From an uncultured Alphaproteobacteria bacterium (GTDB lineage Bacteria > Pseudomonadota > Alphaproteobacteria > Rs-D84): a DNA stretch of 64,000 bases. The DNA lies in assembly GCA_944389595.1 (NCBI GenBank), contig CALXMY010000002.1:150338-214337 (forward strand), given 5' to 3'. Positions 803 to 57,591 of the stretch are shown piece after piece. The notes beneath the pieces were generated by a model. The model worked only from the letters and a program-made list of their open reading frames with translations. It was not told where the DNA came from and did no database searches. The first letter of the stretch is position 1. Each line of letters opens with the position of its first letter. The position numbers and the translations under genes were made by a program.

Positions 803-1177
803 TTGGTAAGTGTAAATAAAGATTCGTCTGAATTTGCATTGGCGGTGGCGAATTTGGCCGCTGCGGCAATTGCGGCCAATCCGGCATTAAGCATGGACGA
901 TGCTGTGCGTGCCGCACGTGAAAGTTTGTGTGGCGTGTCGGTTAGTCCGCAACAAATTGCTGCGTCGGTTCAACCTGATAAAATTCAATGTCTGGAGGAT
1001 GGCACATGGCATGTCATGCTGCGGCGATATGTGCGTCGGAAATTTAATATGACACCGCAACAGTACAGAAAAAAATGGGGTTTGGGTGACGATTACCCAT
1101 TTGTTGCGCCGAATTATTCGCTGCGACGATCAAAAATTGCAAAGAAAACAGGACTGGGCAAAAAAAGGAAAAACTAA
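803..1177 (+). CDS. mucR: Ros/MucR family transcriptional regulator (TTG start)
   Basis: C-terminal ...CLEDGTWH...MTPQQYRKKWGLGDDYPFVAPNYSLRRSKIAKKTGLGKKRK matches the conserved Ros/MucR zinc-finger/C-terminal signature. Confidence 0.65.
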   Translation: MVSVNKDSSEFALAVANLAAAAIAANPALSMDDAVRAARESLCGVSVSPQQIAASVQPDKIQCLEDGTWHVMLRRYVRRKFNMTPQQYRKKWGLGDDYPFVAPNYSLRRSKIAKKTGLGKKRKN

Positions 1178-3108
1178 TGGCAGAAAAATTTCGAAAAGTT
1201 GTTGCAACTCCGGAACAGGCGACCGCAAAATTACGCAAAATAATTGAAAAAACGCATCCAGAAAAATATGTACGTGCACGTCGTACGGAAAAAAATGCTG
1301 ATGGTACGACTGGTCGATTTCCGGAATTAAATGATACCGTCGCAATTATGGGACTGGGGACGGCAAAATGGACTGCCTGGTTGGCGGCGGGTGGTGCCCA
1401 GTTTTTATTAACTTTGGCGCGGTGGATGACGATGGATAATGTGTTCCTGCGAAAAATGGAAAATCATTTCGCTGGGCGAAATGCTGGCAAACGGCGAAAA
1501 ACAACAAAATTATCGGCAATTGCAAAAAAGTATCCGAACGCATCGGCACATATTTTATGGTGGTTGGGATTGGCCGCGGTCGCAGGTGGTGGTTATTTTG
1601 GGACAGAAATCGCACCCGAAGTAATTACCCAGGTTAAAGAGTGGCAGAATGCGCGCGATGCAGAACGCTGGGCCGAGCAAGAAGCCCAGGGTACATATCG
1701 TGCGTTTTTAAATAAAATACGTCCGATTACACCGTTTATAATTGCTGATTTGATTGCCAAAGAAGGTGTGCATTTGGATGAACACGGACTGCATAAACCA
1801 TACCGGGATTCCAAGGGCGTGGCAACAATCGGATTTGGATCAACTGTGTTAAAAGATGGCAGTCGGGTTACAATGGATACTGCACCAATCACCACCGAAG
1901 AAGCATACGAATTGGCGCGGTGGCATTTGGAAGAGGCCGAAACTTATTTCGTTCTGTATTGTTATGATGTTGGATTGCAAAATGTAAATGTTAATACAAC
2001 CAGTGAAGCGTTTGGTATGAGTTCAATTATGTACAATACGTACGCTGATATAATTGAAAAACCAGACGATGAAAATTATCAAAACAGATTTGGTGAATTA
2101 AGAAAATTGCTGGATGAATATGGATATGCCGTGTCTGATGAACAAGTGCGACATGTGTTTGATAAATATCCCGTTACAAATTTAACCAGTTTTGGTGATG
2201 CTTGGATCAATGATTCTGATGCAAATATGATGGCTGATAAATTGGGTGAATTTTTGGCCGGTGGGCGCGGTATGCAATGGCGACGGTGGTTAGAGGCTGG
2301 ATTGCTGACCGGAAAGATAACGCCCCAGATGATGTTGGATTGTCCTGCGAATGGAATGTATGAATTTTACAAATATATGGGCAAAAAGAAGTCTGCATTT
2401 TTTACCGGTGCGGTTAATTCGCGCCAGGTTAATTTGGATACGTACGAAATATTCCAACAGTGGTTAAAAAATCCTGTGGATGAAAAGGGGCATTCACTGA
2501 CAAAGTGGAACAAAGTTGGCGATTGCCTGCCGGGCGATATATTGGCGTATTGTCAAAGTGGAGAATGCAAATTTGACAATAAAGATTTTAATAAGCATAT
2601 TGATAAACGTAAAAAAGTAGAATTGGAAACTTATACTTTGGGATATGATGCGCAGTATAAAAACGCAATCGCACAGTATAATGCGGGCGAATATGCGGGC
2701 GCGGCGCAATCTTTCCAAGATATGATAAAAAAATATCCAAACAATGCGTTGCTGCATAATGATTTGGCCGCGACTTATAACAAACTAGGTCAATATAATG
2801 ATGCTGTACAACAGGCGCGTGAAATACTGCATCGCATCGGGGATAAAAGCCAATATGCCGCGGCGCAATATAACGCAGGTGTCGCGTACGAGCAACTTGG
2901 CGATTATGACAGGGCGTTAATGAACTATAAATTATCCGTAAAAAATGGTAATTCGCGTGTGGCAAATGATGTGGCGCGTGTACAAAAAATGATAAGGGGC
3001 AAAACCATCGCGTTCCATGATGCGGCGGATAAATTAAATGTGAATGGTAAAACGTCTGGGGTTGATATAAATCAAGTCGTTAAACAATCCGGGCAAAAAC
3101 GGGTATAG
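1177..3108 (+). CDS. Membrane-anchored GH24 phage-type lysozyme-like domain protein with C-terminal TPR repeats
   Basis: Hydrophobic segment ILWWLGLAAVAGGGYF; lysozyme motif IAKEGVHL..KPYRDSKGVATIGFGST..ITTEEAYELARWHLEEA (T4L Glu/Asp/Thr-like positions); C-terminal TPR-like repeats (AIAQYNAGEYAGAAQSF...YNKLGQYNDAVQQA...); start overlaps mucR stop (TAATG). Confidence 0.55.
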   Translation: MAEKFRKVVATPEQATAKLRKIIEKTHPEKYVRARRTEKNADGTTGRFPELNDTVAIMGLGTAKWTAWLAAGGAQFLLTLARWMTMDNVFLRKMENHFAGRNAGKRRKTTKLSAIAKKYPNASAHILWWLGLAAVAGGGYFGTEIAPEVITQVKEWQNARDAERWAEQEAQGTYRAFLNKIRPITPFIIADLIAKEGVHLDEHGLHKPYRDSKGVATIGFGSTVLKDGSRVTMDTAPITTEEAYELARWHLEEAETYFVLYCYDVGLQNVNVNTTSEAFGMSSIMYNTYADIIEKPDDENYQNRFGELRKLLDEYGYAVSDEQVRHVFDKYPVTNLTSFGDAWINDSDANMMADKLGEFLAGGRGMQWRRWLEAGLLTGKITPQMMLDCPANGMYEFYKYMGKKKSAFFTGAVNSRQVNLDTYEIFQQWLKNPVDEKGHSLTKWNKVGDCLPGDILAYCQSGECKFDNKDFNKHIDKRKKVELETYTLGYDAQYKNAIAQYNAGEYAGAAQSFQDMIKKYPNNALLHNDLAATYNKLGQYNDAVQQAREILHRIGDKSQYAAAQYNAGVAYEQLGDYDRALMNYKLSVKNGNSRVANDVARVQKMIRGKTIAFHDAADKLNVNGKTSGVDINQVVKQSGQKRV

Positions 3109-3112
3109 CAAA

Positions 3113-5116
3113 ATGAAAGTATATGTAAATTATAATGATACGCGATGGCGTAAATGCAAAATTGATTTTGAACGTATTGCAAATGCGGCTGCATTGCAGT
3201 GTGGCCCCGATGCCGAGGTTTCGATTACATTAACCAATGATTCCGAAATTCATAATTTGAATCGCGAGTATCGCGGAATTGACCGACCAACAAATGTTTT
3301 ATCGTTTGAATTGGGCGATGATATTTTGTTGGGTGATATTTATATATCGTTTGATACAGTTTTGCGCGAGGCGGATGCGCAAAATATTTCGTTTGACGAT
3401 CATGTGACGCATATGGTGGTGCATGGTATGTTACATTTACAGGGGTATGATCATATAAAAAATCGTGATGCGCATCGTATGGAAAATATGGAAATAAAAA
3501 TATTGAAAAATTTAAACGTAAAAAATCCGTATATGGACGATTCCGCCGTATGCAGCGATTTATCATGTTGCCCGGGAAATAAATTTTTTACATTGTTGCA
3601 GCGCATTAAAATTCGTCCTGATGGATTTTGGCAATATGTTATTATGGCTGTTTTGGGTGCGGTTGCGGCATTGGGGTTTGCGCCATTTAATATATGGTGG
3701 GCGACATTAATTGCAATTGCGGGGGCATATAAATTAATGGTTCGTGTACCATCGCGAAATGTATGGCGGGCATTTTTGCGAATTTTACCGTTCAGTGCGG
3801 TATATGCAATTACTATGTTTTGGTGGGTTACAAATTCGATATATGTTGTGCCCGAATTGGCGGCACAGTTTGCAATATGGACGGTGCCGGCATTGATTGG
3901 AATTGGAATTGTTGGTGGAATAATATTTGCAATTCCATTTGTTATAATTTCACGTATACGCACGTTTCCGGCATGCAGACCATTTTTGTTTGCCGGCATG
4001 TGGACATTTGTTTTATGGTTGCGTGAATGGTTGTTTACCGGATTTCCATGGAATCCGATTGCAAATATAACAATGCCGATGCCGATGATTGCAAATTCTA
4101 TGTCGCTGTGGGGGGCATTGGGATTAACATTTGTAATAATTGGGCTGATTGCCACAGTGGTCGAAATATTGGGGGCACGGCGTGATAAATATTGTTGGAC
4201 GACATTGGTTATATTTATGTTATTGGTATTTTTAGGCGTGGCATGGGGACATAAAAATATACAATTATCACATCGTGTATCTGAAAATAGCCCGGTTATG
4301 CGCATAGTTCAACCCGCGCGCAGCGCATCACAAAAAGCCACACATTCACGTGCAGATGCATTACGAAATGCAACCGAAAATGTGCGCATGTTGTCCGATT
4401 TGGCCGGTGCACCCGGCAATCCGGATGTGGTTGTGTTCCCGGAAACATCGTATCCATTTGTTATTGTGGATGGTGATAATATGCCATTGGCAAAAATGTT
4501 GGGACGCGATACAGTTATTGGTGCGAATTCATATTTAAATGGAAATATGTATAATTCAATGATTGTTGCATCCCCAGATGGGGAAATAGAAACCGTATAC
4601 AGCAAATCGCATTTAGTACCATTTGGTGAATACAGACCATTTGGTGATATTATTCCAACGCCTGGCCAATTGTCGCGCGGGGCGGGTGCGACGGTTATAA
4701 ATATTGGGAATTTTTCATTTGCGCCGGCAATTTGCTATGAAATTATTTTTTCAGATTCGTTGATTCCGGTTGGCGAAAATCCGAATGCGATTATTAATAT
4801 TACAAATGATACATGGTTTGGCACAACGCCGGGTACGTACCAACATTTGGATATGGTGCGTCGTTATGCAATTGAATCGGGGCTGCCAATTGTGCGGGCG
4901 AATTATTCCGGAATCAGTGCGTTTGTTTTATCAGATGGTACAATTACATCGCAAATACCAGTTGGTCATGCAGGATACGCCGATGGTGTTGTATTTGGTG
5001 CACATATGACACTATATCGTAAAATTGGTCGTGATTGGTGGATGTTTGTTATTTTGATGTTTTCGTGTATATGCACGATTTCGCTGTATACAATACAACA
5101 GAAAAAATATTTATAA
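3113..5116 (+). CDS. In-frame fusion ORF: rRNA maturation endoribonuclease YbeY (N-terminus) plus apolipoprotein N-acyltransferase Lnt (C-terminus)
   Basis: YbeY zinc motif HGMLHLQGYDH; Lnt N-terminus FFTLLQRIKIRP (cf. E. coli FASLIERQRIRL), LFTGFPW, CN-hydrolase motifs VVFPETSYPF and ICYEIIF; no stop codon between the modules; internal ATGs at 3533 and 3644. Confidence 0.7.
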   Translation: MKVYVNYNDTRWRKCKIDFERIANAAALQCGPDAEVSITLTNDSEIHNLNREYRGIDRPTNVLSFELGDDILLGDIYISFDTVLREADAQNISFDDHVTHMVVHGMLHLQGYDHIKNRDAHRMENMEIKILKNLNVKNPYMDDSAVCSDLSCCPGNKFFTLLQRIKIRPDGFWQYVIMAVLGAVAALGFAPFNIWWATLIAIAGAYKLMVRVPSRNVWRAFLRILPFSAVYAITMFWWVTNSIYVVPELAAQFAIWTVPALIGIGIVGGIIFAIPFVIISRIRTFPACRPFLFAGMWTFVLWLREWLFTGFPWNPIANITMPMPMIANSMSLWGALGLTFVIIGLIATVVEILGARRDKYCWTTLVIFMLLVFLGVAWGHKNIQLSHRVSENSPVMRIVQPARSASQKATHSRADALRNATENVRMLSDLAGAPGNPDVVVFPETSYPFVIVDGDNMPLAKMLGRDTVIGANSYLNGNMYNSMIVASPDGEIETVYSKSHLVPFGEYRPFGDIIPTPGQLSRGAGATVINIGNFSFAPAICYEIIFSDSLIPVGENPNAIINITNDTWFGTTPGTYQHLDMVRRYAIESGLPIVRANYSGISAFVLSDGTITSQIPVGHAGYADGVVFGAHMTLYRKIGRDWWMFVILMFSCICTISLYTIQQKKYL

Positions 5117-5123
5117 GATAATT

Positions 5124-5327
5124 TTATTGTCTGTATTGTTTTAAAATCCAAACGCGAATGGCGGCGGATAAATTTGTATCTGGGGTGCGATTGTCGTCAA
5201 TATGTTCAATTATTGATGCAACGGATTTATTTTGTATATGTGCCAAATCATGCAGCGCATCAATAAATTCAGGCTCCAGTGATATACTGGTTTGGTGACC
5301 CGATAAAGATACCGATATTTTTTTCAT
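5124..5327 (-). CDS. Ribbon-helix-helix (CopG-like) small protein
   Basis: MKKISVSLSGHQTSISLEPEFIDALHDLA...LSAAIRVWIL resembles the alphaproteobacterial RHH family; start overlaps stop of upstream gene. Confidence 0.5.
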   Translation of the reverse strand: MKKISVSLSGHQTSISLEPEFIDALHDLAHIQNKSVASIIEHIDDNRTPDTNLSAAIRVWILKQYRQ

Positions 5328-5794
5328 TATATTTTCCCCGCAGCCAGGCAATCCGATAATGCGCGCCATGCATCATCATACTTGCGCAATGGGTTTAATG
5401 TTAAATTATCAATCATAAAAAAGTTGCCAAACGAATCAAAAGAAAACCAAAATAAATCATTACGGCCAAAAACCGTATGTCCACGCAGACGTGAAAACCC
5501 GATTAAATCATTGTTTATTTTTTGAATTGATGGGAATAAAAATTTTGGTCCTTCCATTGCGTCGATTGTGCCAAATATATAACCATTCCCCAGATTTATT
5601 CCATTACATTGTGTATATAAATCAATCATTTGTTGGGGTAATATTGCCGAGCGCATATGTTGTAATGTGGTATTTGCAATTGCAACAGATTGTGGTGTGG
5701 CCGGTGGCGCGCACCACGCATTTTGTTTTTTTACAAATATCATAAATTCATCATGTGTCATTTTTTTATTGTCCGTTTCCACGTGCCGCAACAA
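5327..5794 (-). CDS. SUKH (Smi1/Knr4)-like protein, immunity-protein family candidate (alternative start at 5761)
   Basis: ILPQQMIDLYTQCNGINLGNGYIFG ... GRNDLFWFSFDSFGNFFMID ... DDAWRALSDCL matches the LP..Y..fl...NGg / ...gnylcfd / ..sFeefl pattern of SMI1_KNR4. Confidence 0.45.
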   Translation of the reverse strand: MLRHVETDNKKMTHDEFMIFVKKQNAWCAPPATPQSVAIANTTLQHMRSAILPQQMIDLYTQCNGINLGNGYIFGTIDAMEGPKFLFPSIQKINNDLIGFSRLRGHTVFGRNDLFWFSFDSFGNFFMIDNLTLNPLRKYDDAWRALSDCLAAGKI

Positions 5795-6278
5795 TTTGTG
5801 CCGCGATTTGGCTTAATCGGTCAGATGTTGCATTTCCGCCATCTCCCCCCGATGTTTCGTGTGATGTGACGTACACCTTTTTCGCAGGATTGGGCAGCCA
5901 TATTGTATCCGCCCCGGATTGTTCAATTATAAATGTATCCAAACGCCACGATTGCGGGAAAGTGCGGCACATGAACAAATTATTTAATTCCAATTTGCCG
6001 CCCCATACCAATGGAACCCGGAATCGTATGGATGTGTTTTGTGGCATTGCACGTCCCATAATCAGTGCCATGAATTCGTCCTGGGTCAGGCCCATGAACA
6101 TGGCCAACTCTTCGATTGAATCGGTTAATGATTCCATAAATTCATGACATAATTTTTTATATTTTAGAAACCAATCAGAATCCACACGCGTTGGTTTTGG
6201 GCGTATTTCCATTACCGGCATATCGTTCATATGCATATCAGATAAACGCTTTTGTGCAGATTCATGACTTAATTGCAT
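5766..6278 (-). CDS. Hypothetical protein (candidate toxin partner of the downstream SUKH-like gene)
   Basis: 170-aa ORF translationally coupled on both sides; no recognisable family. Confidence 0.4.
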   Translation of the reverse strand: MQLSHESAQKRLSDMHMNDMPVMEIRPKPTRVDSDWFLKYKKLCHEFMESLTDSIEELAMFMGLTQDEFMALIMGRAMPQNTSIRFRVPLVWGGKLELNNLFMCRTFPQSWRLDTFIIEQSGADTIWLPNPAKKVYVTSHETSGGDGGNATSDRLSQIAAQIVAARGNGQ

Positions 6279-7240
6279 TACATTTTACCCATATGTGTTA
6301 TGACGGCATCGATGTATTGCGAATATGCATCAAACATACCGTCATCGTCCGGTGGTATCGGTGGATTTGGATTTTGTTCCATATATTCACGTAACTCACC
6401 CATTGAATTAAATTTTAATATATCCTGAAATTCCGATGTGTCGGCATCGGGTGCGGTTATCGCAAAAGCGTTTATGTCAATATATGTTTCGTCCAATGTA
6501 TCTGTGAATATACCGCGGAATTTTTCAACTATGTTATGCACATCGGTTGTTTTAACACCAACGCATCCAATCCATATTGTTTGTTCGGTTCCAATCGCGG
6601 TCAGGGCAATTTGAATTCCATTTACACGTGGGGATGGTTTTATAACATATCCGGCGTTTGTAAATATTTCGCGCAATTCGGGCCAATTTTCTGTTTTTGT
6701 TGGCGTTGTTTGTATCACGGGCGTGGTACCAATCGGCGCATTTTGCGTTGCGGTGTGTGTGGCGCGTGGTGGCGCAGAATATTGATTGCCCAATGCTGAT
6801 GGCATTAATCTGGGTGGGCGTGCGGATGTCGATGGTGCCATTGTTTCAGATTGGGGTGACATTTGTGCAGGGTGCGTTTCCGTTGCCGGTATTTCCAATA
6901 CAGATGCGTCATTATCGGGTAATTCGTGCGCCGCTTTTTCAATATTGTTTTTTTCATGCGTGTTTTTTGATACGCGCATAATTGGTAATCTGATACGACG
7001 GGTGCGGGGACGTAACACCATGTATAGCCCCAATATGGTTATAAAAATTGTTACCGCAATTGATACATAAAAACCATTTTTAACCGGTGTTTGCGCCGCC
7101 TGTAGCGATGCGATGTATTCCCAGTGTGCCGCGGAAAATATGTTAAACCCAAATGCGGTGTTGAACCAAAAACTGGTGGCCAGTGTTACAGCCACCACCC
7201 ATAAAATACATATTAATATGTTGTCGGTACGTATTCTCAT
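6278..7240 (-). CDS. Hypothetical membrane protein with Pro/Thr-rich linker and C-terminal globular domain
   Basis: Two N-terminal TM segments, low-complexity P/T/S/A linker, conserved-looking C-terminal approx 130 aa; first gene of a 4-gene overlapping operon. Confidence 0.45.
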   Translation of the reverse strand: MRIRTDNILICILWVVAVTLATSFWFNTAFGFNIFSAAHWEYIASLQAAQTPVKNGFYVSIAVTIFITILGLYMVLRPRTRRIRLPIMRVSKNTHEKNNIEKAAHELPDNDASVLEIPATETHPAQMSPQSETMAPSTSARPPRLMPSALGNQYSAPPRATHTATQNAPIGTTPVIQTTPTKTENWPELREIFTNAGYVIKPSPRVNGIQIALTAIGTEQTIWIGCVGVKTTDVHNIVEKFRGIFTDTLDETYIDINAFAITAPDADTSEFQDILKFNSMGELREYMEQNPNPPIPPDDDGMFDAYSQYIDAVITHMGKM

Positions 7241-7283
7241 TTGGCTTTAATTATATCATATTTATGATAAAGTAAAAAGAGTA

Positions 7284-7949
7284 ATGATTTATTCTGATGA
7301 AATTCTTGATAAGATTTATAACGCCGGATTATGGTGTGGGGCGGATAATGATTCCGCTGATTTGGCGCGTGCGGCATCAATTGCAATTGATGCGGGATTG
7401 GATATCATATCGGTGGTGCCGGATTCTGTGCCAATTTTATGGCCGTGGCTGGAAAATAAGAAAATAAAAATAATGGCCCGATTTTATTTGAATGCGGCTG
7501 ATTCGGAAAATATTTCGCACAGTGTTGAAAAAATTAACACTGCATTACGGCGTGGTGCGGATGGGGTACAGATTTTTTTGGCCCCGCGTGATTTGGATGC
7601 GTTTGTGTCGCAATTATATTTAATACGTGATGATTTATTTTTTAATCGGCATGTATATATCGGGTTTGATATTGAAAAAATAGGGCCGTTTGATTGGGCA
7701 AATGTATATGCTGCGGTGGCCAAAATGCGTGCCACGGGGGTTGTATTGGCATTGGTAACCGACAGGGGGGACAAATCTGATTTTGTTGGTCGGGTATATG
7801 CGGCAATTAATACGGCGGATGTGCCCAGGGATATTAATTTGCATTTTGTTATTGGTAAAAATCCCGCGCGTGCGGAACAGGCGGCGCGATTGGTAAAATC
7901 TGTGCGGCCCGATTTATATCAGAATTTACGTTTTTTTGTGAATGTTTAA
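7284..7949 (+). CDS. Hypothetical protein
   Basis: 221-aa ORF divergent from the 6278-7240 operon; no confident family assignment. Confidence 0.4.
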   Translation: MIYSDEILDKIYNAGLWCGADNDSADLARAASIAIDAGLDIISVVPDSVPILWPWLENKKIKIMARFYLNAADSENISHSVEKINTALRRGADGVQIFLAPRDLDAFVSQLYLIRDDLFFNRHVYIGFDIEKIGPFDWANVYAAVAKMRATGVVLALVTDRGDKSDFVGRVYAAINTADVPRDINLHFVIGKNPARAEQAARLVKSVRPDLYQNLRFFVNV

Positions 7950-9185: not shown

Positions 9186-10752
9186 TGGTTTATCGGCTGA
9201 TTTAATTGCACGTGTGTTGGGCGACGCGCCAAAATATACTTTGGCGGAACTGGAGGAAAAATTCCCGCCACGCAATTTGCCGGATGGTGCGTTTGTAACG
9301 CGCTTTGCACCCAGTCCCACGGGTTATATGCATATTGGTGGCCTGTACCAGGCATTGATTGATTGCAAATTGGCATATGATACGGGTGGTGTTTTTATGC
9401 TGCGCATCGAAGATACAGATACCAAGCGCGAGGTTGCAGATGCCGTAGAAATAATCAAAAATTCAATGCAACGATTCGGGTTGAAGTATAATGATATGCC
9501 TGAATATGGGCCGTATTATCAGTCCCAGCGGCGCGATATTTATCACAGTGTGGCGGCCGATTTATTGGCGCGTGGTTTGGCGTATCCGTGCTTTTTAACC
9601 GCGGACGAGATGGCGCGTATTCGTGAAAATCAAAAGGCTGCGGGCTTTGCCACCGGCATTTATGGTGAATTTGCGCGCGACCGCGATATTACTGATGATG
9701 AAATAATTCGCCGTCTGGACGCGGGAGATGTTCCATCGATTCGTTTGTATTCAACCGGTAATCCGCAACAGCGAATTTTCTGTAAAGATGCCGTTCGTGG
9801 TTCAATTGGTTTCCCAGAAAATAACGAAGATATTGTTTTAATTAAATCAAATGACGGTTTGCCAACGTATCATTTCGCGCACCTGTGCGATGACCATTTT
9901 ATGCGCACAACACATGTTGTGCGTGGCGAAGAATGGTTGCCGTCATTTCCGTTGCATATTCAATTGTTTCGCATGATGGGGTGGGCACCGCCGATGTATA
10001 TTCATACATCAACAATTGATAAAATTGATGCGGATACTGGAAAACAGCGAAAATTATCCAAGCGTCATGACCCCGAGGCAAATGTTGCATTCTTTCTGGC
10101 CGATGGTTGGCCGGTCGAGGCTGTGTTGGAATATTTATTCAATATTGCGGCATCTGGATATGAAGAGGCAAAAAACAAAGGACAGGTTAAAAATATTTGG
10201 GAATACCAATTGCGACCCAAAAAAATTCCGATGTCGGGCGCGTTGTTTGATATGAAAAAGTTAGAATGGTGGGCGCGTGAATTTATCGGGACGTTGCCGG
10301 TTGATGAATTGGCGCGGCGCGTTCGTGATTGGGCAAATGAATATGACCCGGTGTGGGCGGCGCGAATCGGTGATAAACCGGAATATCTGAAAAATATTTT
10401 GGCAATTGAACGTGATAATCCAAAACGCATTCGCAAAGATTTTATTACGTGGAAACAAACTTTGGACGAAGTGTCTTATTTTTGGGACGATTTATTCGCG
10501 CCGAATACCGAATATGCGTTTAATTATGATTTGTTGCGCGCGTTTTTGGATGGGTTTGACATTTGTGATGATAAAGATACTTGGTGGAATAAAATTGTTG
10601 CGATTGCCGCAAATGCGGGTGTTAAAAATGGTGATGTTGCGATGAATCTGCGTGTGGCGGTGACGGGACGCACAAATACCCCGGACCTGTATTCGATTAT
10701 GCGGGTTATGGGGCAAGAACGTGTTGTGCAAAGAGTAAAAAATGCAATTTAA
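9178..10752 (+). CDS. gltX: Glutamate--tRNA ligase
   Basis: FAPSPTGYMHIGG (HIGH motif) and KLSKRH (KMSKS-like motif). Confidence 0.85.
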   Translation: MRNGLSADLIARVLGDAPKYTLAELEEKFPPRNLPDGAFVTRFAPSPTGYMHIGGLYQALIDCKLAYDTGGVFMLRIEDTDTKREVADAVEIIKNSMQRFGLKYNDMPEYGPYYQSQRRDIYHSVAADLLARGLAYPCFLTADEMARIRENQKAAGFATGIYGEFARDRDITDDEIIRRLDAGDVPSIRLYSTGNPQQRIFCKDAVRGSIGFPENNEDIVLIKSNDGLPTYHFAHLCDDHFMRTTHVVRGEEWLPSFPLHIQLFRMMGWAPPMYIHTSTIDKIDADTGKQRKLSKRHDPEANVAFFLADGWPVEAVLEYLFNIAASGYEEAKNKGQVKNIWEYQLRPKKIPMSGALFDMKKLEWWAREFIGTLPVDELARRVRDWANEYDPVWAARIGDKPEYLKNILAIERDNPKRIRKDFITWKQTLDEVSYFWDDLFAPNTEYAFNYDLLRAFLDGFDICDDKDTWWNKIVAIAANAGVKNGDVAMNLRVAVTGRTNTPDLYSIMRVMGQERVVQRVKNAI

Positions 10753-11758
10753 ACCAGACGAAACTTTCATTGATATGGGAAAGCCAATGGAGGCTGGTAT
10801 GCGGCGGCCACCGTATGTTGCAGTATTTGAACGAGACGGAAAAAAATTATTTTATTTAGCGGAAACGCATTCGACTGTCGAATCGTTTAATATGGTTAAT
10901 GATTGCTTTAAACATAAAGATTTGCCTGATGTTTTTGTTGTTGAGTATGAAAGTTCCGGGCGAAAACTACATGATTTAGATAGCGATGCATTGGTATCTC
11001 GTATAAAGTTTTATAACATATTATCGGCGATGCAAAAATTGGAACCCGGTAAAGAATTTACAATTAGTAGTGATAAGAGTTTGAATACATTAGAGTACGG
11101 AGCGGCTATGGCCACAAGTCTGGGTGTTCCAGTCGTCTTGGCAGATATTGGGCACGATGCGCGTCAAGCGGCATTAAATGATGCATTTCCTGGGCATAAA
11201 ATAGATGTTCGGGCAGCGGTTGCGGCGACGCCGAAAACTGGATGTACTAATATGGTTGAGGCGTTTGAGCTTCAGGTTTTTAATGCGTTGCAAGAAATTT
11301 ATCCCGGTTATAAATTTGATAGGCAGAAATTATTGCGTGTTTTTAATGCTGGATGCAGGGAAAATTGTAATGTAGCGGATATTTCGGTTCAAAAGTTATT
11401 ACGACGAAATATGGTACGCGCATGGAATGAAAATTTCCCAGATTTACCAATTGATATTAATGGTATGAATAATATTTTGAATTCAAAGTGGGTTCAGGAT
11501 TTTGAGTTTTTGAAACAAAATCCAAATGCATATCTGCAAATGACTATGCTGTTTCGTGATCCGTATATGTTGAATCAAATTGCTGATGCGTTAAATAAAA
11601 ATGATACTGTATGGTGTCATTTTGGTGAAGGGCATTTCCGCAGCCAGTATAAAAATCTTGTTAAGTGGATGGGTATGCCAAAATATTATATTGATTATGC
11701 GAATAATCGTAAAAATAAAGTAAATTTAAAGCAATTGGAACAGGAGTACGATAAATGA
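10742..11758 (+). CDS. TraB/GumN (Tiki-like) family protein, putative; atypical codon usage
   Basis: N-terminal LFYLAETH and C-terminal HFGEGHF resemble the LGTxH ... GxxHL motifs of TraB/GumN; codon usage (CTT, TCT, AGT, GGA) differs from neighbours. Confidence 0.35.
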   Translation: MQFKPDETFIDMGKPMEAGMRRPPYVAVFERDGKKLFYLAETHSTVESFNMVNDCFKHKDLPDVFVVEYESSGRKLHDLDSDALVSRIKFYNILSAMQKLEPGKEFTISSDKSLNTLEYGAAMATSLGVPVVLADIGHDARQAALNDAFPGHKIDVRAAVAATPKTGCTNMVEAFELQVFNALQEIYPGYKFDRQKLLRVFNAGCRENCNVADISVQKLLRRNMVRAWNENFPDLPIDINGMNNILNSKWVQDFEFLKQNPNAYLQMTMLFRDPYMLNQIADALNKNDTVWCHFGEGHFRSQYKNLVKWMGMPKYYIDYANNRKNKVNLKQLEQEYDK

Positions 11759-16168: not shown

Positions 16169-17077
16169 TTGAAGTATTTTCTGTTAATATTTGCGCTTTA
16201 TGCGTTGGGTTGTGGCAAATGTGTTGCGGCCGATAAAATCGTGCCCGGTACAAACAATTTGCCATTGGGTAGGAATAGTTTACAAACAGAAAATAGTAAT
16301 TTAACCACAGAAGAATACAAGGCCGCCGCAGAATTACAGGCGGAATTAATAAATTCTGAATTGAATGAAATTGCGGCACAAATTAAACAGTTAAACCCGG
16401 ATTTATATAATCAAATGCAGTCTGAATCAGCAATGAAACAGTTATATGCGTATCGCAGTTGGTTGGCCAGGCAGGCATTTGATTGGTATAAAACACGTTT
16501 GATTGCCGATTTAAAATTAAAAAGTAAAAATACCGGGCGTAATATAAAAAAAATAGGTGAACAAAATAAAGATTATATTTTTTCAAATGAACAAGAGTTT
16601 GATGATTATATCGCTGTAAATTGTGGTGATGATAATGCGTGTCAATTTTGGCTGGATCGTGGCAAGTATGATTCGCCTGAATGTTATACCAAAGATGGTT
16701 ACCGCGATTTTGGCATATGTGAATATGCATTAGATTTTGAAGAATATACATTGTCGTTGTCACCAAATAATATATTCGTTATCAAGGGTGATGCCACAGA
16801 TAATACATTTACTTTTTATGATATTGTTTTGTCACAAACAGAACAGGAATATTTTTTGGATGTTACGGCAACGGTTGGTGATTTGTCTGAATGGATAACG
16901 CATGATAATCAATCAATAAAATTTTATAAGGCGTTGAATGAATTACAAGGACGTGAAAAAAGGCAGTTTATTAAACAATATAGTCAATCATATATGAATG
17001 GTGAAATTGATAATACTGTTCCTGGCAGTGATGTGTGGGGGGTAAGTGTTAATGGTATGGGGGTATTTAATAAATGA
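16169..17077 (+). CDS. Secreted lipoprotein, hypothetical (TTG start)
   Basis: Signal peptide with lipobox ALGCG, Cys-containing C-terminal region; AT-rich lineage-specific gene. Confidence 0.5.
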   Translation: MKYFLLIFALYALGCGKCVAADKIVPGTNNLPLGRNSLQTENSNLTTEEYKAAAELQAELINSELNEIAAQIKQLNPDLYNQMQSESAMKQLYAYRSWLARQAFDWYKTRLIADLKLKSKNTGRNIKKIGEQNKDYIFSNEQEFDDYIAVNCGDDNACQFWLDRGKYDSPECYTKDGYRDFGICEYALDFEEYTLSLSPNNIFVIKGDATDNTFTFYDIVLSQTEQEYFLDVTATVGDLSEWITHDNQSIKFYKALNELQGREKRQFIKQYSQSYMNGEIDNTVPGSDVWGVSVNGMGVFNK

Positions 17078-17805
17078 AATTAGTCCCATATTTGTTCGGA
17101 ATTTTTTTTATAAATGTAACGTTTGCCGCGGAATTGGATGTTTTATGGTTGGGTGATAACCCGTATGCATCCATTTATAATAAAACGAATTCATTACTAA
17201 TTATTAATACATACGATAAAATATCAGAATTAGAAGAAAAATATAATTTGGCGGTTGGCCGCGAACAATCATATGCAAATCGTATGCTGGGTGCGGTATC
17301 GATTGGTGCCGGTGGTATTGGTGGGATGATGTTGGCATCTGGCATTGCGGAACAATCGGCCGATGCGGCGGCGGAACGTGATATGTCTGCATATTTGGCA
17401 ACATTTCGTTGTGATTATGGGGCGGGTAAAAACATTCGTGGTGGTGAAACAAACATAACATTACCGGGTGCAAATATATTGTTAAACCTGCGGACGGAAT
17501 ATATAACATTGGCGGCGGATATAAAGGAACGAAAAACGATGTTGGGGTTAAGTCCCGGGATAGAATCAGCAGTAATAGATGATGCAACGGAATATAATTT
17601 ATATAACAACACCAGCCTAGGAAAGACAGATGGTGCGTATACATCAATATCGCGCGCATTAAGCGAGCCCGGTGGCGATGATGCGACTGAATGGGCGGCG
17701 CAAAAATCAGAATCACAACAACAAACGCAGACAGGTGGTATAGTTGGTGGTGCCGGTGTTGGCATTGGAATAATTGGTAATGTCATTATTAACGGGAAAA
17801 AATAA
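17074..17805 (+). CDS. Secreted glycine-zipper protein, hypothetical
   Basis: Signal peptide MKLVPYLFGIFFINVTFAA; Gly-zipper segments GAVSIGAGGIGGMMLASGIA and GGIVGGAGVGIGIIGNVII; ATGA overlap with upstream gene. Confidence 0.5.
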   Translation: MKLVPYLFGIFFINVTFAAELDVLWLGDNPYASIYNKTNSLLIINTYDKISELEEKYNLAVGREQSYANRMLGAVSIGAGGIGGMMLASGIAEQSADAAAERDMSAYLATFRCDYGAGKNIRGGETNITLPGANILLNLRTEYITLAADIKERKTMLGLSPGIESAVIDDATEYNLYNNTSLGKTDGAYTSISRALSEPGGDDATEWAAQKSESQQQTQTGGIVGGAGVGIGIIGNVIINGKK

Positions 17806-56115: not shown

Positions 56116-57540
56116 TTATACCACTTCTGTATGAAAATGGGCATATATTTTTTTTGCGGCCGATTTGCCCAAGCCTGGTACGCGCATCAGTGCATCCAGA
56201 TTTGCATCTGTAATTGCGCGGACCGAACCAAAATGGTTTAACAATGCGCGTTTGCGCGTTGGGCCAATGCCATCAATTTCATCCAGTACCGATGATGTCA
56301 TTTGTTTCGCGCGCACGGTGCGATGAAATGTGATAACAAAACGGTGCGCTTCGTCACGTACGGCGCGTAATAATAAAAACAGGCGTGAATCCTTTGGTAT
56401 GTCACGACATACGGTGGAATCGGGCATAATAAAATGTTCGTCGCCATCGCGAACTTCGCCCTTGGTTACGCCCAATATTGGTATATCGGGTGCTGTTTTA
56501 TGGGCAATGTTCCATTGGGCGGGGCCACCATCAACAATTAATAAATCCAATTTTGGGCCACGTGCGGTTGCGCGCTGTACAAATTCGGCCATCATTGCAA
56601 TGTCGTTGCCGGCACGTGCCGCATCGCGCAGTTTGAAATGACGGTATCCGGATTTTATAAATCCATCGTGACCAAATGTTATCATTGCACCAACAGGATT
56701 TCGCCCGAACAGGTGCGAATTGTCAAATACACCCGCCATTTCAATTTTTATGCCCAACCATTTTTCCAAATCGGCCACTGCGTCGGTCCAATTGAAATTT
56801 GCGCTGTGTGCACGATTCCGCCGTATACCGCGTGTTGATGTTTGGGTTAATGCGGCAATTTTATCACGAATGATTGCGGCCGATTCAAAATCCATCATGT
56901 CGGAAAATTTTTTCATTTGTTTGGTTAAATCGGCAATAATAGGTTCGCTGTCACCGGTCAATATTCGTCGTGCCAACGCGACGTTTTCGGCATAATTGTT
57001 TTGTTGAATTGTGCATGGCGCGCTGCATCGGCCAATTTGATATAATAAACATGGTCGGGTGCGATTGCGCATAAATGTATCCGTGCATGTGCGCAGACGA
57101 CATACCTTTTGAATTGTTTTTATTGTTTCGTTTAGTGCGGTGACCGATGGGTATGGACCGTATACATCGCGACGTTGTGATATTTTACCACGAAATTTTA
57201 ACAGGCGCGGGAATTCTGATTGGGTTAATGCAATCATAGGGTACATTTTCCCATCAGTTAACATAATGTTATATTTTGGTTTTAGTGTCTTGATTAATTT
57301 TTGTTCCAAAATCAGTGCATCAGATTCTGTTGGTGTTATTTCCCATTCGACACGTGTGACCAATGTGCGCATAACCTGTTTGTGGGGTTCCAGCTTTGAT
57401 ATATCCATGTATTGTTTTAGCCGATTGGACAGATTTTTAGCCTTGCCCACGTATAACAGAACCCCGTCCGCGTCATACATTTTATAGACACCGGGGGCAT
57501 TAGGACTGTTTTCAATTAAATCAGAAAATTGAATATTCAT
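56116..57540 (-). CDS. uvrC: Excinuclease ABC subunit C-like protein (short, approx 474 aa)
   Basis: GIY-YIG N-terminus GVYKMYDADGVLLYVGKAKNLSNRLKQY; RNase H-like/endonuclease V region; C-terminal (HhH)2 GIGPTRKRALLNHFGS. Confidence 0.65.
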   Translation of the reverse strand: MNIQFSDLIENSPNAPGVYKMYDADGVLLYVGKAKNLSNRLKQYMDISKLEPHKQVMRTLVTRVEWEITPTESDALILEQKLIKTLKPKYNIMLTDGKMYPMIALTQSEFPRLLKFRGKISQRRDVYGPYPSVTALNETIKTIQKVCRLRTCTDTFMRNRTRPCLLYQIGRCSAPCTIQQNNYAENVALARRILTGDSEPIIADLTKQMKKFSDMMDFESAAIIRDKIAALTQTSTRGIRRNRAHSANFNWTDAVADLEKWLGIKIEMAGVFDNSHLFGRNPVGAMITFGHDGFIKSGYRHFKLRDAARAGNDIAMMAEFVQRATARGPKLDLLIVDGGPAQWNIAHKTAPDIPILGVTKGEVRDGDEHFIMPDSTVCRDIPKDSRLFLLLRAVRDEAHRFVITFHRTVRAKQMTSSVLDEIDGIGPTRKRALLNHFGSVRAITDANLDALMRVPGLGKSAAKKIYAHFHTEVV

Positions 57541-57591
57541 GATATTTATGATAAAATATAAAAAAACAAATAGCAAATAGAGGTTAAAAAT

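Follow-up and report, generated by a model that had tools for sequence, protein, structure and literature searches.

Toxin-immunity pairs are usually regarded as mobile, fast-evolving weapons. In polymorphic toxin systems, immunity proteins of the SUKH superfamily accompany a large secreted toxin protein, and the systems show tandem SUKH arrays, diversification and a sporadic distribution (PMC3113570; PMC3482391). Hcp-HNH effectors of type VI secretion systems (T6SS) have likewise been characterised together with their cognate immunity proteins (Hcp-ET1/ETI1 class; PMC6099711). E. coli YhhZ, which the classification of His-Me fingers puts in group 32 (PMC5714182), joins a T6SS_HCP domain to a C-terminal HNH domain, for which the Pfam HNH match is sub-threshold (E = 0.0051; 17.4 bits against a cut-off of 21.4), and the SUKH gene yrhA lies directly downstream of yhhZ. 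A block of four genes on the minus strand (positions 5124-7240) of a 64-kb stretch of DNA from an uncultured gut alphaproteobacterium (contig CALXMY010000002.1; the whole stretch is hereafter called the window) resembles YhhZ/YrhA in that an HNH-type domain is followed at once by a SUKH gene of the YrhA type. It differs in that the pair stands in an operon with a membrane protein and a ribbon-helix-helix (RHH) protein, and in that it forms a vertically inherited core locus. The open reading frames (ORFs), all four found on translation of the window, encode a membrane anchor of 320 aa (ORF1, 6278..7240), an apparently HNH-derived, YhhZ-C-terminal-like domain of 170 aa (ORF2, 5766..6278), a SUKH-fold protein of 144 aa (ORF3, 5327..5761) and an RHH_4 protein of 67 aa (ORF4, 5124..5327).

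The balance of evidence tips towards a domesticated pseudo-nuclease/SUKH complex in which ORF1 would serve as the membrane tether and ORF4 as the autoregulator. A repurposed complex is probable, rather than a weapon or a defence system, since the residues that would do the cutting have been lost and the block is inherited like a core gene cluster.

The ancestry of ORF2 was traced by profile comparison. ORF2 has no match in Pfam (including HNH), NCBIfam, PADLOC or PHROG, and its alignment gave no significant match in a sequence-profile search of the PDB. Its homologues, of which 120 are listed out of 505 clusters, are 166-170 aa long and 61-78% identical, together with one 99% match to the window's own species, and the family alignment contains the invariant motifs SIRFRxPLxWGG, NLFMC, WLPNP and GGDGGNATxDRLSQ. 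A profile search of 1.8 billion cluster representatives returned 75 relatives, many of which are proteins of 320-430 aa in three parts: a conserved MWDWS N-terminus, a Pro/Gln-rich linker and a C-terminal ORF2-like domain with the motif PENFNVHxKxPxEYGG..FSNLxLIQTHPYHxxIHKF. The profile alignment of the ORF2 clade (A1) matches that of a clade linked to a VirD4-like coupling protein (A4) over 145 columns (hhalign 98.9%, E = 1.4e-17), and A4 in turn matches residues 250-383 of YhhZ, its C-terminal HNH domain (hhalign 98.6%, E = 1.1e-15). By profiles, the YhhZ C-terminal domain is homologous throughout its ~135 residues, beyond the beta-beta-alpha core. YhhZ had been chosen for comparison with the ORF2 families because yrhA follows yhhZ in E. 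coli. The recently described divergent HNH toxin Tox-REHH, which sometimes has a SUKH immunity protein (bioRxiv 10.64898/2026.09.22.753552), was considered as a candidate, and the delivery contexts described for it are different. The likeness to the Hcp-ET1/ETI1 effector-immunity pairs holds at the level of the class, by way of YhhZ (PMC6099711). The chain from A1 through A4 to YhhZ, combined with the yhhZ-yrhA gene order, argues that ORF2 descends from an HNH toxin domain paired with a SUKH immunity protein. The sequence-only reading had named ORF2 a candidate toxin domain; this holds for its ancestry, by the profile chain to YhhZ, and is not supported for a working toxin, as the HNH histidines have been replaced.

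HNH enzymes use the second residue of the HH dyad as general base and their other histidines to hold the metal. In the alignment, YhhZ carries this dyad together with the Asn and the distal His, whereas ORF2 has R85, F86, N100, S110 and D114 at the HNH positions, so that HH...N...H has become R/F...N...S/D. Each of the 121 ORF2 relatives examined has R85, N100 and D114; F, L or M stands at position 86, and 119 of the relatives have S or A at position 110. No conserved His is left at the HNH positions of these relatives, and only the structural Asn (N100) is kept from the catalytic and metal-binding set. The invariant Arg and Asp at former metal-ligand positions suggest a salt bridge in place of the metal site. 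In the AlphaFold (AF2) model of ORF2, which has a predicted local distance difference test score (pLDDT) of 82, a strand-strand-helix unit spans residues 82-118.

A basic nuclease with an acidic immunity partner is the usual pattern. It is seen in the C-terminal domain of YhhZ, with an isoelectric point (pI) of 9.7, and in the coupling-protein-linked clade, with a median pI of 9.1 for the HNH-like domain and 4.9 for the SUKH partner. In the window-type clade the charge pattern is inverted, the medians being 5.5 for ORF2 and 8.45 for ORF3, and the basic DNA-binding face of ORF2 appears to be gone. Charge complementarity is kept despite the swap, and ORF2 and ORF3 are therefore predicted still to bind each other. 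Since all HNH-site histidines have been lost and the domain has turned acidic, ORF2 is most likely a non-catalytic pseudo-nuclease.

Unlike YhhZ, ORF2 has no Hcp or other delivery domain: it is a lone domain of 170 aa, with no hydrophobic segment, signal or trafficking domain. It also differs from YhhZ in an extra tail. The GGxxxxxDR (GG-x5-DR) motif of this tail, which reads GGDGGNATxDRLSQ in the window clade (ORF2 residues 144-157), is kept in both paralogous families. At this motif the AF2 model is of low confidence, with pLDDT under 50 for residues 143-148. The region of YhhZ matched by hhalign (to residue 383 or 387 of 392) leaves only 5-9 residues before the end of the protein, too few for a tail of this kind. 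The tail is probably a partner-binding peptide.

ORF3 is supported as a SUKH-fold protein by a confident AF2 model (pLDDT 91) and by its best three PDB matches, which are all SUKH structures. These Foldseek matches, 3d5p, 2icg and 2pag, have E-values of 3.9e-4, 7.3e-3 and 0.21, probabilities of 1.00, 1.00 and 0.89, and TM-scores of 0.60-0.66; all three structures were used in defining the SUKH superfamily (PMC3113570). By sequence, ORF3 reaches 17.2 bits against Pfam SMI1_KNR4, where the curated cut-off is 25.4, and just two of its 34 relatives match that family. It scores 28.8 bits (E = 9.5e-7) against the NCBIfam YrhA family, whose curated cut-off is 55 bits. Its paralogue beside the coupling protein, a protein of 144-147 aa, exceeds the same cut-off with 76.8 bits and matches the ORF3 profile (hhalign 97.5%, E = 5e-12). 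E. coli YrhA fragment 1 gave no significant match with the ORF3 profile, nor did a sequence-profile search of the PDB with the ORF3 alignment. The three ORF3 motifs quoted in the sequence-only reading are all present in the translation, and its SUKH-like assignment is upheld by the fold, with the top three Foldseek matches all SUKH, and not by the Pfam and NCBIfam scores, which lie under the curated cut-offs. ORF3 is best described as a divergent relative of the YrhA family and the presumed binding partner of ORF2. It shares with the SUKH immunity proteins of polymorphic toxins their fold and a position directly downstream of a nuclease-derived domain (PMC3113570; PMC3482391). A SUKH protein in a membrane-associated housekeeping role, rather than in immunity, has a precedent in the SecY-interacting Syd of E. 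coli (PMC3113570); the comparison is at the level of the fold, as Syd belongs to another subgroup, SUKH-2, and has no nuclease-like partner.

The block was found in eight contexts. The complete order ORF1-ORF2-ORF3-RHH_4 is present in seven of them, and the eighth, on a 2.3-kb contig (locus L056), holds the first three genes only; the conservation of the block in relatives, which had been proposed as a check, is thereby borne out. In the window species the neighbours include ybeY-lnt and trmB, and a second species (L046) has the same neighbours. In L041 and L060 the block lies beside trmB and gltX, with different downstream genes, and in L042 beside ybeY-lnt, with different upstream genes. L058 has it among acetyl-CoA carboxylase, AsmA and uvrB genes, and L059 among tatC, an M23 peptidase gene and leuS. 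Sequence identity in the block follows that of its housekeeping neighbours. Between the window and L041 it is 81% for GltX, 76% for HlyIII, 63% for TrmB, 63% for ORF4, 62% for ORF2, 51% for ORF3 and 36% for ORF1; between the window and L042 it is 52% for ORF4, 40% for YbeY-Lnt, 35% for ORF2, 30% for ORF3 and 25% for ORF1. ORF2 thus diverges at about the rate of TrmB. The block has a single SUKH gene and no arrays.

ORF1 was described in the sequence-only reading as a membrane protein with a Pro/Thr-rich linker, and it does contain two hydrophobic segments (19-residue windows starting at residues 3-10 and 55-61), with transmembrane (TM) helices at approximately residues 8-28 and 56-78. Its family has a conserved two-TM N-terminus with the motif FGFNIFS.AHW.Y, a variable linker, which is Pro/Thr-rich in the window and in which an RPPRL motif is almost invariant, and an acidic C-terminal domain (pI 4.3 in the window protein). 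By the positive-inside rule, this C-terminal domain would be cytoplasmic. ORF1 had no match in Pfam or NCBIfam, and its alignment had no significant match in a sequence-profile search of the PDB. A NERD identity for the C-terminal domain was considered on one weak match (E = 0.016) among 25 family members and is kept as a lead only.

ORF4 matches Pfam RHH_4 (PF13467; E = 2.4e-19) over profile positions 2-66 of 67, which agrees with its earlier description as an RHH protein, and it consists of the bare domain. An equivalent gene occupies the same position of the block in L041, L042, L046, L058, L059 and L060. A literature search on RHH_4/PF13467 returned nothing relevant.

Upstream of ORF1 lies a control region of 43 bp (7241..7283), shared with a divergent gene of 221 aa on the plus strand (7284..7949). 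It contains the palindrome ATCATA-AA-TATGAT (7255-7268), which overlaps both putative -10 elements. On the minus strand, a predicted extended -10 element, TGATATAAT (7258-7250), ends only 9 nt before the ORF1 ATG, so the ORF1 transcript would be near-leaderless; on the plus strand, a promoter-like pair TTGGCT/TATGAT would serve the divergent gene. The sequence ATCATAAATATGAT, within the same 43 bp, is a candidate target element for ORF4, which is predicted to bind the palindrome and so to autoregulate the operon. In the distant locus L042, the extended -10 element, TGCTATAAT, is 6 nt away from the start codon of ORF1. Across four species (the window, L046, L041 and L060) the intergenic sequence ACTTTATCATAAATATGATA.AATTAAA hardly varies, and ~28 nt of the control region are near-identical even though ORF1 of L041 is just 36% identical to that of the window. 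A copy of the palindrome with one mismatch (ATCATAAATATCAT) is found at 57539-57552, where it overlaps the uvrC start codon (gene at 56116-57540 on the minus strand; Pfam UvrC and GIY-YIG). With 6 matches where 2.2 are expected, and 6 reached in 4 of 100 shuffles, the motif does not exceed chance overall, and the copy at uvrC could be a second RHH site or a coincidence.

The divergent gene is co-conserved with the block, and its family is unassigned: its product had no match in Pfam, NCBIfam, PADLOC or PHROG, and a PDB sequence search found nothing significant. Homologues were found by tblastn at the same position in L041 and L042, and in L046, L059 and L060 this position is held by genes of 220, 192 and 221 aa. 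The gene is absent from the L058 locus. It may be part of the same functional unit as the block.

The proposed mechanism for the domesticated complex follows from these parts. The block would be a chromosomal operon that a lineage of gut Alphaproteobacteria inherits vertically, and its central pair, ORF2-ORF3, would have arisen by domestication of an HNH nuclease effector domain together with the SUKH protein giving immunity to it, as in E. coli YhhZ/YrhA. The nuclease domain would have become a pseudo-nuclease by losing every HNH-site His and turning acidic, and ORF3 would keep binding it, the two partners having presumably swapped charge together. ORF1 would hold the complex at the cytoplasmic face of the inner membrane by its long flexible linker. 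ORF4 would repress the operon, and perhaps also the divergent 221-aa gene, at the palindrome over both -10 elements.

Several observations weigh against this reading. A fold search had been proposed for the ORF2 product: its model gave nothing significant against the PDB by Foldseek (best E = 0.76, with HNH domains at the top of the list), and it was the profile comparison that led, via A4, to the HNH domain of YhhZ. A direct comparison of A1 with YhhZ is not significant (E = 0.19), though the register is the same, so the link between ORF2 and YhhZ is transitive, through A4. Loss of the canonical histidines is no proof of lost toxicity, and coupled toxin-derived, SUKH and RHH genes are also what a live toxin-antitoxin (TA) operon looks like.

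The alternative that survives best is a live toxin-immunity or addiction module, in which ORF2 would be a toxin with a non-canonical site, ORF3 would neutralise it and ORF4 would regulate the operon, the whole being fixed because it cannot be lost. The ancestry of the pair is that of a toxin and its immunity protein, the genes are tightly coupled with an RHH gene at the end, and the invariance of R85, D114, N100, Q120 and the GGDGGNATxDR tail indicates that some site of ORF2 is under selection. Against this, every HNH position has lost its His, and the acidity of ORF2 contrasts with the basic C-terminal domain of YhhZ and with the coupling-protein-linked domains. The features of polymorphic toxin systems, a trafficking domain on a large secreted toxin, cassette or SUKH immunity arrays, polymorphism (among the 120 listed homologues) and sporadic distribution, are all absent from the block, which in several species stands in the same place beside trmB, gltX or ybeY-lnt. 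Type II TA operons with RHH antitoxins are likewise small and translationally coupled, but the RHH gene of the block is last rather than first, its product is a bare RHH_4 domain of 67 residues that leaves no room for a toxin-binding extension, and no TA toxin family was matched in Pfam, NCBIfam or PADLOC. A live module is therefore unlikely. The sequence-only reading had proposed a working toxin-immunity or defence module, and its first half is not supported in view of the replacement of the HNH histidines in 121 of 121 relatives, the inverted charge, the lack of a delivery domain, the single SUKH gene and the SUKH profile scores of ORF3, which stay under the curated cut-offs.

Relatives of three of the four proteins occur in a second setting. 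A genome scan with the A4 alignment found MWDWS/HNH-like proteins in 35 gut alphaproteobacterial species (loci L006-L040). Wherever the flank is on the contig, a VirD4/TraG-type coupling protein (PF02534, E = 1e-56) is encoded immediately upstream of the MWDWS protein, and the 144-147-aa YrhA-family SUKH protein immediately downstream of it. The cluster encodes, in order, proteins of 398, 480, 387, 348 and 317 aa, the coupling protein, the MWDWS HNH-like protein and the SUKH protein (e.g., L025, 930-10993), and the 348-aa and 387-aa proteins are paralogues of each other. Across the loci, the coupling proteins share 61-95% identity with that of L025. For the five proteins encoded upstream, Pfam and NCBIfam gave no match, and no VirB4-sized ORF was found within 10 kb in L025; the coupling protein is not obviously part of a secretion apparatus, and the cluster may be an undescribed system. 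The HNH-like proteins of this cluster keep three or four His, but in all 27 that were parsed the general-base position holds I, V, L or R instead of His, and they may not be canonical nucleases either.

ORF1, ORF2 and ORF3 all have paralogues in the cluster, as judged from matches to the ORF1 N-terminal module and C-terminal domain, from A1-A4 and from the SUKH profiles. The N-terminal module of ORF1 shows homology with the 348-aa protein, encoded upstream of the coupling protein (hhalign 95.3%, E = 2.2e-8), and the C-terminal domain of the distant ORF1-like protein of L056 matches that of the 348-aa protein (BLASTP, 2e-7); no relation was found between ORF1 and the 398-aa and 480-aa proteins of L025. 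The paralogues of ORF1 (348/387 aa), ORF2 (the C-terminal domain of the MWDWS protein) and ORF3 have the same relative order as in the block. The cluster differs from the block in having an ATPase, three or four His (not the general base) and the basic/acidic pairing, and in having neither the RHH_4 gene nor the 221-aa gene.

Descent from such a cluster is plausible, if rather less secure than the domesticated complex as such: an HNH effector/SUKH pair with its membrane partner may have been duplicated from a VirD4-like ATPase cluster, disarmed by the Arg/Ser/Asp replacements and the charge swap, and fixed as a possibly essential membrane-tethered complex throughout a gut alphaproteobacterial lineage.

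The second setting also bears on a DNA-surveillance or defence-like system, in which a triad of NERD-like membrane, HNH-like and SUKH proteins would act on foreign or damaged DNA at the membrane, as an ATPase-less version of a VirD4-like translocase system. In its favour, all three proteins have paralogues flanking the VirD4-like ATPase in the 35 species, no VirB4-sized gene lies within 10 kb of the L025 cluster, and the coupling-protein-linked HNH-like protein has PHROG relatives; the single NERD match in the ORF1 family points the same way, and that assignment rests on one of 25 members. Against it, neither version has a PADLOC match at E up to 0.1 (searched with the four block products, the divergent 221-aa protein and the coupling-protein-linked paralogues), the window version has neither ATPase nor catalytic residues, and the core-gene rate of divergence and fixed synteny are unlike those of defence islands. 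Such a system is improbable, slightly more so than the live module. The suggestion of a defence module in the sequence-only reading likewise loses ground, as the block proteins had no PADLOC or PHROG match and the block lies among housekeeping genes in its eight contexts. That the block encodes an accessory or adaptor of a type IV secretion system (T4SS) or DNA-transfer machine located elsewhere in the genome, ORF2/ORF3 recruiting substrates to a coupling protein, is very improbable: the HNH-like/SUKH paralogues do lie immediately downstream of the coupling protein in all 35 loci with the upstream flank present, but a tblastn search with the L025 coupling protein detected neither a coupling protein nor another T4SS gene in the 64-kb window, and the block lacks the MWDWS N-terminal extension of the linked paralogue.

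The four ORFs of the block are real genes and not chance reading frames, as ORF1-ORF3 have homologue clusters (137 for ORF1 and 265 for ORF3, besides those of ORF2) and ORF4 has a Pfam match and a conserved position. On four public contigs of this species, gene calls made independently give the same lengths (320, 170, 144 and 67 aa). Read from the sequence, ORF1 and ORF2 overlap by 1 nt at 6278 (TAATG), a 4-nt gap separates the ORF2 stop from the ORF3 ATG at 5761, and ORF3 and ORF4 again overlap by 1 nt in a TAATG at 5327. The earlier description of four minus-strand ORFs chained by 1-4 nt is correct in its genes and junctions, with the ORF3 start moved from 5794 to 5761. The alternative start at 5794 is an in-frame upstream TTG that would give an overlap of 29 nt with ORF2; gene callers and the 34-sequence family alignment favour the ATG at 5761.

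The GC content of the region shows no anomaly, and the homologues bear names such as Candidatus Enterousia and "Alphaproteobacteria bacterium". The block is flanked by housekeeping genes, on one side by a ybeY-lnt fusion and genes for MucR and a lysozyme-tetratricopeptide repeat (TPR) protein, and on the other by trmB, a GNAT acetyltransferase gene, gltX, HlyIII and thrS. The fusion (3113-5116, plus strand) is a single ORF of 667 aa in which the YbeY endoribonuclease (residues 19-134) is joined to the apolipoprotein N-acyltransferase Lnt; a fusion of 596 aa is likewise called in L042 and one of 670 aa in L046, so that it is a lineage trait rather than an assembly error. The adjacent 643-aa protein (1177-3108, plus strand) combines C-terminal TPR repeats with a segment at residues 206-259 that resembles phage lysozyme, and its gene starts at the last base of the stop codon of the MucR/Ros regulator gene (803-1177, plus strand). 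Several further conserved ORFs, at 10742-11758 and 16169-17805 on the plus strand, have no Pfam family: one of 338 aa, which overlaps gltX at its end, one of 302 aa and one of 243 aa.

In the domesticated reading, a pair derived from a toxin and its immunity protein acts here as part of a core operon, having lost the catalytic His in every member examined and inverted the charge of both partners together. A SUKH gene beside a nuclease-like gene is thus not automatically an active toxin-immunity module, which is a lesson for annotation. If true, the reading would document the recycling of conflict systems into bacterial cellular machinery and would flag an undescribed conserved cluster built on a VirD4-like ATPase. 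If duplication and disarming did give rise to the block, bacteria would offer in it a clear example of how a toxin-immunity pair can be exapted to housekeeping or regulation. The finding would also provide a handle on two uncharacterised protein families present in hundreds of gut alphaproteobacterial genomes.

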